Below, one piece after another: positions 2,700-32,042 of a stretch of DNA of 64,000 bases. Position 1 is the first letter of the stretch. Each line of letters starts with the position of its first letter. The notes under the pieces were generated by a model. It was given only the letters and a program-made list of their open reading frames with translations. It did no database searches and was not told where the DNA came from. The DNA comes from Bacillota bacterium (GTDB taxonomy: Bacteria; Bacillota; Clostridia; Lachnospirales; Lachnospiraceae), in assembly GCA_023415475.1 (NCBI GenBank), contig JAEZKL010000130.1, positions 27,529 to 91,528 of the forward strand. The letters run 5' to 3'. A program made the translations under genes and the position numbers.

Positions 2700-3242
2700 C
2701 TAAAGTGTTTCATCTGAGAGCCTTTGTAGCTCAGCACCATAATCAAATATAATGGCAATAAAGAAAAATATTAATGCTAGTATTACAGACACTATATTAA
2801 ATGATGACCGTATTGTAATCTCTGGTGCAAAAGAACTATAAAATCCCTTTCTTGAAATTGGTTCTACTAAGGAATATATCATTAATAAACCCCCTATTTT
2901 TTTAAGCCTTTTTGCGTTCTCTTGACTGAATGGCATAATATTTATACTGATTGATTTAAACATACGATATGCTATTAATAAAATGTAAAACACAAATACC
3001 CCTGATACAAGAATTGCCCACATTTCTGCAACTATTTCACCGGTTGTTTCCAATAGCTGTCCTGTTGATGAATAAAAGCCCAATGCATGCACTGCTTCGA
3101 AATTAGAATTTGGTGTAATATAATACCATATAAGAGAAGATAATGGTATACACATACCTACAATCAGTGAAATGTATAATACTTTTGTGCTAATAGCCAT
3201 TATTTTACTAATCTTACAAACTTTATTCTGTATATCATTCAT
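2700..3242 (-). CDS. DUF2975-like multi-pass membrane protein
   Basis: 180 aa with 4-5 hydrophobic segments, located immediately upstream of the small HTH gene (a known gene pair). Confidence 0.65.
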   Translation of the reverse strand: MNDIQNKVCKISKIMAISTKVLYISLIVGMCIPLSSLIWYYITPNSNFEAVHALGFYSSTGQLLETTGEIVAEMWAILVSGVFVFYILLIAYRMFKSISINIMPFSQENAKRLKKIGGLLMIYSLVEPISRKGFYSSFAPEITIRSSFNIVSVILALIFFFIAIIFDYGAELQRLSDETL

Positions 3243-23610: not shown

Positions 23611-23820
23611 ACGTTTCTCCTATATTTCAACGCTAATCTTATAATCTCATTCTCATCTTACCATATCATCCATATTGTGACAATCGTATTCCATCAATAA
23701 GGTTACTACCTTAGATCGTTCTGCATTTTCCTTCGAAATATTGAAGGATAGAAATAATAACGAATGGCATAGTATATCCGCTGAGGAAATCTACGGCATT
23801 CATCGGGCCGCTTCTTCCAT

Positions 23821-23853
23821 AAAAAGGGAGTGCCCCAAACATGCAGCACTCCC
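23821..23853 (-). terminator. Rho-independent terminator after the MCP gene
   Basis: The minus strand reads GGGAGUGC, loop, GCACUCCC, followed by UUUUUAU. Confidence 0.65.
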
Positions 23854-23919
23854 TGTCATTTCATGATAGTAAAGGTATTCCTACTTGCGCTCCTCATTGA
23901 TTAAATGTTCCTTTAAGAA

Positions 23920-25458
23920 CTAATTCACCCGAATCAACTTATTCATATCCTCGGCCATTCCCTGCAGCGTTTCTGCACTTCCTGCAAGCTCTTCGCTGGT
24001 CGCCAGATTTTGATGGATGGAATGAAAGACGGTATTAAAGCTGTCAATGGTGTTGTTCGTTGATTCTGTAAGCTTCGAATTCAAATCCACTGTATTCTGG
24101 GTCTCATGTAACATGGTTTCGATTAGGTGACTTATCTCATTAATATTCTTGCCTGATTCCTTGAGATCTGCTATCATATCGGTTACATTCACAACCGTAT
24201 CACGCAAGATATCATTACCATGAATAACCTTCAGAGTATTCACGCTCATCAGCTCCTTAACCTCATTTACCCTCTTTTTTAGGTCCTGAGTGATTGAGGC
24301 TACATCATTCAAGGATTTATTCGTATTATCCGCAAGCTTTCTGATCTCATCTGCCACCACGGCAAAGCCCTTTCCTCCTGCACCTGCTCTTGCAGCTTCA
24401 ATCGACGCATTTAGAGAAAGCAAATTCGTCTGGTCAGATATCTGACGTATGATTTCGAACATTGCATCTATCTGATCTGACTTCTCTTCCAAAACATAAG
24501 TTGCTTCTAAGGTATTCTCGATATCTCCTTTAATCTCGGTAATAATCGATAATGCTTCCATTAAGGCATTTTCGTTACGGTTTGAAAGATCCGTTAATTT
24601 TTCGGATTTGCATTCCGTATCCTTTACCTTACCCGCTATTGTCTGATTCGTATATAAGAGCTTCTGTAAGCTTCTATTATTATCATCAATATAATGTAGC
24701 ATCGTATCTGCTTCTTTGGAAGCCTCCTGACTAGTACTTGCAATCTCCTCAATCGAGACGCTTTCCTCCGTTGCTATCTCTGATAAGCTTTCGCTGGATA
24801 TCAGCAGGGACTGAGAATACTCCTCTACCTTATTAAATAATAGGATATTATTTTCATTATGTTGTTTCAGCTCATCCTCATTCAGTTCAATCGTTTTGAG
24901 AATTCTAGAGGAGAAGAAGGTTAATAGCGTGATTCCGAAGGATATTAAACTGATGACCACCACTCTTAAAATCAGCTCTCTAATCAAGTGATCGGATTCC
25001 GGAAGACTCTCCGGATTCAATACAAATATTATAACCTGCGATAGCAGTCCAAGTGCAACAAATGCTATATTCAATCTATTATCGAGAAATAATGCAGCAA
25101 GAATAATAAAATAGAACACACACGCCCATAGCTCCTTCGAGGGTATCATTAATCCCATATATAAATAATTAACATACGAAAAAGCTAATATGATAGTCTT
25201 TAGCGCTTTGAATGATCCCGTGATATGGTCGGTATCCCTGGTTGTCACATTGTACATGACCTTAAAGGTTATAAGCTCTATTACCATAATGATGGCCAAT
25301 GTAATCAGAGAGGACCATTGAATTTCCTCGAGTAAGCCTATCAGCTTTAAGAAAATAAATAAGGTTCCTGCTAAGCCTGCACTGATGGAATAGATAATTA
25401 GTACGAATTTTAAGGTATCAAATTGGTATTTTATAATAGTACTTCTTTCGTCTTTCAT
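23920..25458 (-). CDS. Methyl-accepting chemotaxis protein with a polytopic membrane N-terminus
   Basis: 512 aa. About six TM helices precede the conserved signalling hairpin [34 protein letters not shown]. Confidence 0.9.
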
Positions 25459-25482: not shown

Positions 25483-26487
25483 CTACCATTTATATAGTAA
25501 AGCAGTCATCGTGTAGCCTGATGCTACGGAACAGAATATACTAAGATCATCCTTCTCAAATTGCTCCTGACTCAGCCTGGCATCCAACGCCATGATAGGG
25601 CTTGTACAACCCGAATAGCCATATTGGTCCCCTATGTAGGTTGCTTTCTCCATTCCAACTCCCAGTCTGTCCATGGTCAACTCTAGATCCGTATAGGAGA
25701 ACTGCGACATAAAATAATGAGTGGTATCCTCCGGTGTATAATTGTAATCAGATAATAGCTTGGTAATAAGCTCCGACCAACGGTCTGACAAGAAACTGAA
25801 GTCAAAGGGTTTCCATAACATCTTCCGATCTTCATTGCTGACTTCACTGTCTGAGATTCTTGATATACCACAGGCCGGCATGGTAATGGACCAATAATAC
25901 TGATCGTCAGTGAACATCCTCGATCCGAGAAGACCTCTGCTCTCCTCCTCCACTTTTCTCTCCAGAATGATAGCGGCTGCTCCATCACCTGTACAGCCAT
26001 AAGCAACCATATCATCTTCTCTTGCCTGAGTACTGATTAGCAGGGCTCCAACGATTAGCACTTTATCAAACTTATCATCTGTTTTCAGGTATCTTGCAGC
26101 CGTATCCATCGCAGTCAGCATACCGATACAGTTGGCATTGATGTCAAATACTGCATGTGCATTGATTGCCTGAAGCTGATTCTTGATTAACAGTGCACAG
26201 CAGGGCGATAAGTATTCCGGAGTATCGGACACGGAGATTATCATATCAATATCCTCCGGCTTAAGTCCCGTATTACTGAGAGCCTGATTGGCAGCTTTGA
26301 CTGCCATGGATAAACTGGTTTCATCCTCATTGGCCAAGGTTCGCGTCTCCCTACCGAGCTTTTTGAACAACTGTGCCGCATGATCCTCAACCTGATACCT
26401 TCTAAAATGATCAATATAAAATTGGTTTTCCAATTTCCTTTGCGGATGATAGGATCCGACCCCTACAATGTGTACATTCTTATACAT
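25483..26487 (-). CDS. KAS III (FabH)-like thiolase-fold protein, probably non-condensing
   Basis: 334 aa. It shows the FabH-like layout and the active-site Cys context DINANCIGMLTAM. The region aligned to FabH HQAN reads MSQFS, and the region aligned to GNTSAAS reads GYSGCTS. Confidence 0.8.
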   Translation of the reverse strand: MYKNVHIVGVGSYHPQRKLENQFYIDHFRRYQVEDHAAQLFKKLGRETRTLANEDETSLSMAVKAANQALSNTGLKPEDIDMIISVSDTPEYLSPCCALLIKNQLQAINAHAVFDINANCIGMLTAMDTAARYLKTDDKFDKVLIVGALLISTQAREDDMVAYGCTGDGAAAIILERKVEEESRGLLGSRMFTDDQYYWSITMPACGISRISDSEVSNEDRKMLWKPFDFSFLSDRWSELITKLLSDYNYTPEDTTHYFMSQFSYTDLELTMDRLGVGMEKATYIGDQYGYSGCTSPIMALDARLSQEQFEKDDLSIFCSVASGYTMTALLYKW

Positions 26488-26542
26488 ATTTCCTCCTTAA
26501 TAAGTTCTCCAGAATAGAAGCTTGCCCTGGTTCTTACACCAG

Positions 26543-26635
26543 AGACATTTACTTAGCAGCCTGGCAGTCTTGGGATAATCATACCTGTAGATCCATAGCT
26601 TTGCGTCCTTACCTTTCGGTAAGTTTGCCTTGTCT
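26543..26635 (-). promoter_or_regulatory. c-di-GMP-I (GEMM-I) riboswitch aptamer in the leader of the KAS III-like/MCP operon
   Basis: The minus-strand RNA is AGACAAGGCAAACUUACCGAAAGGUAAGGACGCAAAGCUAUGGAUCU...GACUGCCAGGCUGCUAAGUAAAUGUCU. It has GCAAAC, a P1 hairpin with a GAAA tetraloop, the GGACGCAAAGC junction, a CCAGGCUGC 3' element, and a closing AGACA/UGUCU helix. Confidence 0.8.
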
Positions 26636-26669
26636 TAGGTAATATGTAATTTTATTGAAATTCATTAAA

Positions 26670-26697
26670 ATTATAACATTAATTGTCAAAAATACAA
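26670..26697 (-). promoter_or_regulatory. Candidate promoter driving riboswitch 1
   Basis: The minus strand reads TTGTAT, a 16-nt spacer, then TGT-TATAAT. It lies about 35 nt upstream of the aptamer. Confidence 0.4.
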
Positions 26698-29714: not shown

Positions 29715-31706
29715 TTACATCTTAAACTTTGATATGGATTTTTGCATGTCTTCTGCTAATCCGGACAGGCTCTCACTGGAGTTTGCAATCTCATTCATGG
29801 ATGAGGTTTGCTCTTCAATCGACGCGGTAGCCTCCTGCGTACCTGCTGCATTCTCCTCAGAGATAGCAGACAGATTCTGAATAATACCTACGATTTCATC
29901 CTTTTTGTTACCCATTTCCTTGCTTTGCTGATTCAGATAGTGAATTAATTTCTTTAGGTTTTCAATTGCTGCTGCGATACCCTCGAATTTCGTATTGGTA
30001 AAGTCAACACTGCTAGTCTGCTCTTTGAGGTTCTCACCGACCTCTGACATTGCTTGTACTGCATATTGACTCTTTCCGGTCAGCTCCTCAATATCCTTTA
30101 TGATCTCTCCGGCAAAACGATTGGTCTGCTCTGCCAGCTTTCTTATTTCATCGGCCACTACTGCAAAGCCCTTTCCCTGCTCTCCGGCTCTTGCCGCCTC
30201 AATTGCTGCATTCAAGGCTAACAGATTCGTCTGACTGGCGATATTTAATATCATCTGGCTGGCATTATCAATCTTATTTGCACTTTCGTTTGTTTCCAGG
30301 ATGACATTACGTATCTCTGTCGCTGTCTTATTCGTGATATCAGTCTTCTGTATCAAGACAGTAAGAACATCAAGGCCTTCGCTCTTTTGTCTCTCCACTT
30401 CATCGGCCAGTCCGTTCAATTCTACAATAAGCTTCTGATCCTTCTCAATCAAGTCACCTAAGAGTTCGATTTCACCAGCACCCTTTTCGGTATCACTCGC
30501 CTGATCAGCAGCTCCCATAGCAATATCCTGTACTGCACTGGCTACTTCGTTTGCACTTTCTGCCGCTTGCTGAGTTGTTGCAGTAAGCTCCTCTGAGGCT
30601 GCCGCTATATGCTCAGCCGATTGAGCGATACTCTCAATCAAAGTTCTTAAGTTATCCTGAAGGACCAGGGTTGCATTAGCCATGATCCCTATTTCATCCG
30701 CTCGATTGAGGTACTTATTTGCTTTGTCATTATTCTCAGTAGTCATATCATATTGGGACATGCTGTTTAATAAATCAACCACATGGGTGATGGGCTTCGA
30801 TATTGATCTGCCAAGAAGAAAAGCAATCACTACACCGGCAGCAATGAATATCACCGAGAACACAACTAATAATAAAGTCATTTTATTGATCTCACTGGTA
30901 ATCTGATTCTTAGGCGCCTTCAGGGCTAATACCCAGTCTGTATTCGGTATCATGGTAAGAGATGCTACGAACTCTACACCCCTCAGGTTGTAGCGTATAT
31001 TTCCTTCCTTTCTAACCCTGAATCCATCGAATTTGATACCAAAGTCTTTAAACTCTCCATTTTCCTCAATATCTTTAATTACATTTCTTTGCTCCATTAC
31101 GATCGTTTTATCATCGTGAGCATAAAATGTTCCGTCATTTCCAAGAATGAAGGCACTACCCTCTTCTCCGAAGGTCATACTATAGATGATTTCATTTAAA
31201 GCTGAACCATCTCTTCGTCCAATGAGTGCACCAATAATCTCATCGCCTGATTTAATTGGTGATGCATACATAATAACGGTACTATTGGTTACTTTACTGA
31301 CCAATACATCAGAAAAGCATGCTTGACCCAATAACGCTTTTTGTATATATTCTCGCTCGCTCAGATCCGCTTCCTCTCCACCGATTGCATACCTTGCAAT
31401 ACCTTCCGGGTTAACCACAGCCATATCAAGATATCCCAGTTCTTCGGCTTCTTTCGCCAGGATTTCCAACTGCTCCTCCAATGGCAGACCGCTAATTCGA
31501 TTAGCAACCTGCCTCAATACCTCGGTTCGCAGCTGCAAACGGGCGTTTACATAATTCGCTCCCTGGATCGAGGCTTCCTTCAGTCCGTCTTCCACTTCAT
31601 GAAAAGCCGTATTATGGCCTAATACAATTGATATTGTACCTAAACCACCAGTAACTAATAAAACAAGTACTCCGACAAATAGCGCAATTCTATTTGACAA
31701 TTTCAT
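29715..31706 (-). CDS. Methyl-accepting chemotaxis protein (Cache-type extracellular sensor, HAMP, MCP signalling domain)
   Basis: 663 aa. Two TM helices flank a sensor domain of about 260 aa. The signalling hairpin is [34 protein letters not shown]. Confidence 0.9.
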
Positions 31707-31917: not shown

Positions 31918-32026
31918 AATAGACAGAAACCGTATTTCCGCTTTTCTTGCCTTGGCAACTGGACGATCATAGTTAACACCTTAGATTCACAGCTTTGCGT
32001 CCTTACTTTTCAGTAAGTTTGCTATT
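31918..32026 (-). promoter_or_regulatory. c-di-GMP-I (GEMM-I) riboswitch in the leader of MCP 29715-31706
   Basis: The minus-strand RNA is AAUAGCAAACUUACUGAAAAGUAAGGACGCAAAGCUGUGAAUCU...CCAGUUGCC...CUAUU. It has the same GCAAAC, hairpin and GGACGCAAAGC core as copy 1. The closing helix is AAUAG/CUAUU. Confidence 0.8.
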
Positions 32027-32042
32027 ATCAACAACATTTAGC

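Follow-up and report, generated by a model that had tools for sequence, protein, structure and literature searches.

A class I c-di-GMP riboswitch aptamer upstream of a KAS III-like/chemotaxis receptor operon in a Lachnospiraceae genome, with a putative terminator-less expression platform

A two-gene operon encoding a KAS III-like protein and a methyl-accepting chemotaxis protein (MCP) in a Lachnospiraceae genome is preceded by a leader that resembles a c-di-GMP riboswitch, and the locus raises the question of which ligand this leader senses and how it might act on its genes. We examined it within the window, which here denotes the whole stretch of 64,000 nucleotides that was analysed. A preliminary description of this DNA had read the motifs of a GEMM-I element from the minus strand (GGCAAAC, a hairpin with a GNRA loop, a junction and the end of a second stem) and had proposed a cmsearch comparison with RF01051. 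All of these motifs were present, and the search of the window's own genome with RF01051 (c-di-GMP-I) returned 71.7 bits at 26552-26639 of the minus strand, well above the gathering score of 35, while no RF01051 match was found in any of the 14 control genomes. A cmscan of the whole window (Rfam 15, gathering thresholds) gave two riboswitch matches, at 31951-32033 and 26551-26638. The features of the aptamer are as follows.

26552-26639, minus strand: c-di-GMP-I (GEMM-I) aptamer, 71.7 bits to RF01051 and 62.9 bits to RF03167; in the own genome this match is G000:C131:54080-54167
26629-26623, minus strand: GGCAAAC motif, read from the sequence
26623-26608, minus strand: P1b hairpin CUUACC-GAAA-GGUAAG, with the GAAA loop at 26617-26614
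26608-26598, minus strand: aptamer motif GGACGCAAAGC, read from the sequence
26599-26558, minus strand: P2
26565-26556, minus strand: aptamer motif GCCAGGCUGC, read from the sequence

Based on the model alignment and the motif positions, the equivalents of the three ligand contacts were all canonical, with G20 corresponding to the G at 26629, A47 to the A at 26602 and C92 to the C at 26556, the last being a putative assignment that follows where the junction falls in the structure line of RF03167. The numbering was calibrated against what we take to be the sequence of the Vc2 construct. G20, A47 and C92 are the ligand contacts of Vc2 (PMC11218506). The window aptamer shares with Vc2, the RF01051 reference aptamer from Vibrio cholerae, these identical contacts together with GGCAAAC, a P1b with a GAAA tetraloop, GACGCAAAG and a P2 ending in GCUGC. 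It differs in the tetraloop-receptor region of P2, which reads CUACAGG...CCCAAGA compared to the consensus CUAAGG...UAUGA with the GAAA loop present, and the two also have different hosts, regulated genes and platforms. When 21 distinct orthologous aptamers were aligned, none of the 17 predicted pairs was lost and three of them showed compensatory double changes, although the sequences are close and their variation is limited. By score, contact nucleotides, architecture and context, the leader very probably carries a genuine class I c-di-GMP riboswitch aptamer, for which c-di-GMP would be the ligand.

It was noted that cmscan did not label this site RF01051. At 26551-26638 it kept RF03167 (c-di-GMP-I-GGC) at 62.9 bits, a marginal pass of the cut-off of 59 (E = 1.7e-12), with clan competition hiding one lower-ranked clan member at the site. 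The label leads to an alternative in which the leader would be a specificity variant, either c-di-GMP-I-GGC or a GEMM-Ib sensor of cGAMP, rather than a c-di-GMP sensor. However, the RF03167 consensus reads GACGCGAA, while the window reads GACGCAAAG / GACGCAAA, as do all relatives, and the bit score of RF01051 is the higher of the two. The A47 position holds an A, and the G that we take, from the model consensus, to define the RF03167 variant is absent. Among 12 further relatives, all reading GACGCAAAG, cmscan assigns near-identical sequences now to RF01051 and now to RF03167 (L127 against L129, for example), and we therefore regard the GGC label as an artefact of E-value-based clan competition. 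The alternate labelling was observed between L126, L127, L133 and L135 on one side and L125, L129 and L131 on the other, all of them with an A at the A47 position. An A in place of G at G20 is the change associated with cGAMP-selective GEMM-Ib aptamers, and a sequence of this type is ruled out here because the equivalent at 26629 is a G. A specificity variant is thus extremely improbable. Separately, two orthologous leaders do carry an A at the G20 position, namely L128 at 1835-1924 (AAAGCAAAC) and L013 at 2662-2746 (AAGAGCAAAC). Automated counts of the GGC variant may take in ordinary class I aptamers with an atypical P2 loop.

The own genome contained six RF01051 matches above the cut-off. 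These include tandem aptamers on contig C174 (1912-1996 and 2100-2184, about 100 nt apart) and further matches on C21 (34-117) and C177 (131186-131287). The second copy inside the window lies upstream of another chemotaxis receptor gene and differs from the first in having a clear terminator, GCUGUGG...CCACAGC with a U run (31917-31885), beyond which the leader continues for about 180 nt.

31951-32033, minus strand: second c-di-GMP-I aptamer (70 bits to RF01051), ahead of the gene for a dCache-type MCP at 29715-31706

We then assessed whether the aptamer belongs to the operon by following the KAS III-like gene through other genomes. Orthologues with 53-91% identity were found in Herbinix, Anaerocolumna, Clostridium magnum, C. 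aciditolerans and other Clostridia, and within the own GTDB genus the gene was present in 6 of the 82 genomes searched. Additional loci came from a scan of metagenome contigs, which gave one further orthologue, and from protein database and contig look-ups, which gave 11 more. The aptamer lay upstream of the KAS III-like gene in the sense orientation in L002 and L003, in 14 of 16 genome loci and in each of the 12 additional loci, of which two are truncated by the contig end. Among the 27 loci with enough upstream sequence, only L018 and L023 had no aptamer at the gathering threshold. With none upstream, the riboswitch would have been lost, or never gained, at these two loci. Their KAS III-like orthologues (70% and 63% identity, respectively) have AT-rich regions upstream of the match at 3001. 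The position of the aptamer was the same, upstream of the KAS III-like gene, in all 25 aptamer-bearing orthologous loci. Paralogous KAS III genes of the same genus, with about 40% identity (L004, L005 and L006; about 1062-1312 / 2686-2935), were found beside a divergently oriented T-box leader and not a c-di-GMP riboswitch.

The transcription unit was delimited by the following features.

26670-26697, minus strand: predicted promoter, with the -35 element TTGTAT at 26697-26692, a 16-nt spacer and the extended -10 element TGTTATAAT at 26678-26670
26639-26649, minus strand: conserved 5' leader UUACAUAUUAC, directly 5' of the aptamer
26485-26498, minus strand: Shine-Dalgarno (SD) sequence AAGGAGG at 26498-26492 and start codon ATG at 26487-26485, spaced as AAGGAGG-AAAU-AUG
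25483-26487, minus strand: gene 1, KAS III-like protein of 334 aa (Pfam ACP_syn_III and ACP_syn_III_C)
23920-25458, minus strand: gene 2, methyl-accepting chemotaxis protein of 512 aa (Pfam MCPsignal, residues 311-447)
23819-23854, minus strand: operon terminator AGGGAGUGC...GCACUCCCU followed by UUUUUAU, read from the sequence

The promoter had been put forward as a candidate with this same -35 element, spacer and TGTTATAAT, and its layout is shared by the subclade relatives (TTGATT, 16 nt, TGnTATAAT). A consensus promoter scan missed it, as the -35 element matches at 3 of 6 positions. It lies about 30 nt upstream of the aptamer, and the start codon follows 63 nt downstream. Gene 2 begins 24 nt after gene 1 with its own SD sequence, GAGGAGG. 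The pair of KAS III-like and MCP genes was constant in eleven further loci while the genes beyond it differed, and the regulated unit is therefore these two genes, an operon that extends from the extended -10 promoter at 26697-26670 to the terminator at 23854-23819. With its orientation, its conserved promoter and its unchanged position in other genomes, the proposed placement of a c-di-GMP-I riboswitch in front of a KAS III-like/MCP operon was borne out.

Both regulated proteins depart from familiar members of their families. When aligned with FabH of S. aureus (1zow), the KAS III-like protein retains the nucleophile Cys120 and has SQFS for HQAN and GY for GN, so that the His and Asn of the condensing triad are replaced, and both substitutions were invariant across 28 orthologues. 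Against NCBIfam, FabH models included, it fell under every cut-off. On these grounds, the protein is probably not a decarboxylating condensing enzyme. The partner MCP has a hydrophobic, polytopic N-terminal half with roughly six hydrophobic segments in the first 190 residues, and neither a recognisable sensor domain nor a large external domain was found in it by Pfam or in the translation. An MCP gene directly follows the KAS III-like gene in every locus long enough to show both, and this constant pairing hints at a membrane or lipid-derived signal.

An intriguing question is how the aptamer is connected to gene expression, and the distant orthologues offer a point of comparison. In Herbinix, Anaerocolumna and Clostridium (L003, L011-L024, L066), the aptamer is followed by a classical intrinsic terminator, such as GAUAGAUAGCA-uaucuuag-UGCUAUCUAUC and then UUUUUUG in L019. 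These terminators carry CUUAG in the loop and AGCA in the 5' arm, which are complementary to the 3' end of the aptamer, GCUAAG-uuug-UGCU, and the P1 3' strand pairs with the CUUAG of the terminator loop. An antiterminator built in this way uses C92 and the P1 3' strand and would therefore form only with P1 open, so that the ligand should favour the terminator. We infer that the terminator-bearing orthologues are OFF switches, a logic that agrees with clostridial class I switches. A similar case is Cd1, upstream of flgB in Clostridioides difficile, which we take to be a clostridial class I OFF switch acting on motility-related genes by premature termination. Its logic matches that of the terminator-bearing orthologues, while the window copy has no terminator.

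The window belongs to a subclade of ten leaders (the window itself, L010, L025 and L125-L131), defined by a KAS III-like identity of at least 84%. Two scans of the window minus strand found no terminator, that is, no GC-rich hairpin with a U tract, in the stretch from the aptamer to the start codon, and none of nine subclade leaders had a site passing the terminator criteria. The terminator was also absent in L002. The preliminary description had likewise seen no U-tract terminator before the ribosome binding site and had raised translational control or a non-canonical platform as possibilities, which is consistent with this division between a terminator-less subclade and terminator-bearing distant orthologues. 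Compared to the Herbinix, Anaerocolumna and Clostridium leaders, the subclade shares the aptamer, the P1 3' strand GCUAAG and the two downstream genes, and differs in having the elements CUUCU, UCUGGAG and AACUUA by the SD sequence where the others have a terminator. The elements of the platform are listed here in transcript order.

26551-26555, minus strand: P1 3' strand UAAGU, the switching sequence, after the GC junction in the model alignment
26523-26547, minus strand: hairpin H1 (UGUC-U-CUGGU / ACCAG-GGCA), the apparent relic of an antiterminator core
26516-26520, minus strand: CUUCU, candidate anti-SD, with CUUC invariant in all nine subclade leaders and U or C as the last letter
26507-26513, minus strand: UCUGGAG, candidate decoy SD (anti-anti-SD), kept in nine of the ten subclade leaders and missing from L128
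26501-26506, minus strand: AACUUA, complementary to the P1 3' strand, with 2 nt between it and the SD motif AAGGAGG

The hairpin H1 contains the short CUGGU..ACCAG stem noticed earlier ahead of AAGGAGG, which is found at 26542-26527. RNAalifold identified three H1 pairs with compensatory changes in nine subclade leaders, and the pairing was kept despite a sequence identity of 42%. H1, bordered by AAG and CUU, is a positional homologue of the L014 antiterminator AAG-UUA-AUGCU...AGCAU-UU-CUU. The window lineage has kept the antiterminator hairpin and lost the terminator stem and the U tract. One part of the preliminary reading was not upheld, as AGACA and UGUCU had been proposed to form a closing helix. 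Both strings are present, but their pairing, taken as the closing helix of P1, is not kept in relatives: L131 has AGAAA with UGUCC, L128 has AGAAA with UGUCU, L126 is without UGUCU, and the pairing is also unkept in L025. The UGUC instead forms part of the covarying H1.

26635-26631, minus strand: AGACA
26547-26543, minus strand: UGUCU

The remaining elements are connected by complementarity. UAAGU matches two stretches as their complement, AACUUA (26506-26501) and GCUU (26521-26518). CUUCU pairs with either the GGAG of the decoy or the real SD in predicted folds, and UCUGGAG forms a CUUC/GGAG hairpin in the consensus fold. The motif RCUUA stands just upstream of the SD sequence in every leader that has no terminator (the subclade, L002/L134 and L132), and no terminator-bearing leader has it. 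The leader and the platform elements are 83-95% identical between relatives compared to 42% for H1 and 57% for the third codon positions of the adjacent gene, and this far greater conservation indicates that they are under selection. No covariation was detected in the nine subclade leaders for the anti-SD, decoy or AACUUA pairings, as all elements except H1 are invariant.

From these elements we favour a translational OFF switch. Without ligand, UAAGU would pair with AACUUA and GCUU, and the anti-SD CUUCU would be held by the decoy UCUGGAG, leaving the SD sequence free. With c-di-GMP bound, P1 would capture UAAGU and the 3' domain would loosen, so that CUUCU could pair with the real SD and initiation would fall. 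An SD-sequestering helix would stand in place of the terminator helix and would still be governed by the old antiterminator. Predicted folds of the isolated 3' domain are consistent with both states. In one of them, UAAGU:ACUUA closes a junction that holds H1 and the CUUC:GGAG decoy hairpin, with the SD free. In the other, of close energy, the SD is taken up in pairing, with H1 beside CUUC(C):GGAG(G). When the P1 3' strand was barred from pairing in the prediction, which mimics a P1 locked by the ligand, the predicted SD accessibility was lowered in 10 of 11 leaders, which are close relatives and not independent trials. The values fell from 0.53 to 0.36 in the window, from 0.72 to 0.29 in L010 and from 0.50 to 0.09 in L129, and L128 moved in the opposite direction. 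With the whole aptamer constrained, eight of nine leaders shifted in the same direction, towards lower predicted accessibility. The small predicted effect in the window is due to the CUUCU:AGGAG helix having only 5 bp across an 18-nt loop. It is the blocked-P1 folds, together with a polarity matching that of the terminator-type orthologues, that lead us to favour this mechanism. We consider it likely that control is translational rather than by termination, and hold somewhat less firmly that the polarity is probably OFF. The account taken as a whole, with a class I aptamer, a two-gene operon and a translational OFF switch, appears to us evenly balanced between being right and being wrong.

The 5' leader was the main source of a competing account with the reverse polarity. 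UUACAUAUUAC is complementary to the 3' extension of P1 and also to AAUAUGUA at the start codon, and a translational ON switch could operate by a P1 strand swap in which the aptamer flanks sequester the SD and the AUG without ligand. UACAUAUU-A-C(C/U)U would pair with AGG-A-AAUAUGUA and UAAGU with ACUUA, and c-di-GMP would close P1 and free the ribosome binding site. Both the minimum-free-energy fold computed for the full leader and the consensus that RNAalifold gave for nine subclade leaders point this way, the consensus fold being equally compatible with an ON switch. Furthermore, UUACAUAUUAC shows 95% pairwise identity among nine subclade leaders compared to a neutral expectation of 57% from third codon positions, and the CAUAUU-type leaders of L002, L133 and L135 are complementary to their own start regions. 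However, an extended P1 can also explain the conservation of the leader, and the predicted duplexes between leader and start codon were no better for cognate (-5.75 kcal/mol) than for non-cognate pairs (-4.88 kcal/mol). For the window, 6% of shuffles matched its leader-start-codon duplex, and no covariation was seen. The leader-AUG helix is present in both modelled states and is not obviously ligand-dependent, and the polarity would be opposite to the one predicted for those orthologues of this gene that bear a terminator. Constrained thermodynamic folding of the full leader was uninformative on polarity, since the 5' leader paired with the start codon in either state. A long-range helix conserved from the 5' leader to the start codon, although attractive to the eye in several lineages, was rejected as a separate candidate, with the cognate duplexes no better than the non-cognate ones and shuffle p-values mostly above 0.05. 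The ON switch is therefore regarded as unlikely. A related possibility, which we also consider doubtful, is that the terminator was rebuilt into a three-piece translational device, comprising the anti-SD, the decoy SD and the P1 3' complement by the SD, with its polarity possibly flipped so that it is ON here and OFF in relatives.

Transcriptional control could also have been retained in a weaker form. H1 and the pyrimidine-rich CUUCUAUUCU would then act as a weak or NusA/NusG-dependent terminator, the use of which would be set by the P1 3' strand extending the hairpin. In L133 and L135, the hairpin homologous to H1 is followed by real U tracts (ACUCUUUUU), L025 has CUUCUUUUCU at this point, and the L002 hairpin is followed by UUUU. 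This attenuation is nevertheless distinctly unlikely given the scan of the nine subclade leaders, in which no site passed the terminator criteria. Several relatives have CUUCCGAUCU, a poor U tract, and the H1 core is present in both modelled states, so that termination would not be obviously ligand-dependent.

A further consideration is whether the platform regulates at all. The aptamer could bind c-di-GMP while its platform has decayed and leaves the operon unregulated, as in Bacillus thuringiensis, where Bc1 binds its ligand without a change in downstream expression (PMC11218506). The small change in predicted SD accessibility in the window fits such decay, as do two substitutions in the window P1 5' strand relative to the subclade consensus, with CCUAA instead of CUUUA and a P1 that is weaker or register-shifted. 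On the other hand, the platform and the leader are conserved across the subclade far above the neutral rate, which argues for function, and we regard decay as very unlikely. Bc1, from the Bacillus cereus group (PMC11218506), resembles the window leader in that its class I aptamer precedes an MCP gene in the 5' UTR of a Firmicute and in its non-standard platform. The Bc1 platform spans about 220 nt, has two intrinsic terminators and mixes transcriptional and translational effects (PMC11218506). The window platform differs from it in its 63 nt, in having zero terminators and in having a KAS III-like gene as the first regulated gene.

c-di-GMP riboswitches are well known, a link to chemotaxis receptors was noted at the discovery of the class, and the aptamer itself adds little. 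The occurrence of c-di-GMP-I aptamers upstream of MCP genes is likewise known from Bc1 (PMC11218506). What is of modest interest is the turnover of the platform within one orthologous family, together with the conserved KAS III-like/MCP cargo. Across the 25 orthologous leaders the expression platform has turned over while the aptamer and the gene stayed the same, and these leaders form a compact natural series for testing how a riboswitch moves between transcriptional and translational control. The regulated KAS III-like/MCP unit is itself conserved and uncharacterised, and its placement under the control of c-di-GMP suggests that a lipid-like signal or an acylation step is coupled to the decision of cellulolytic Clostridia between motile and sessile life.
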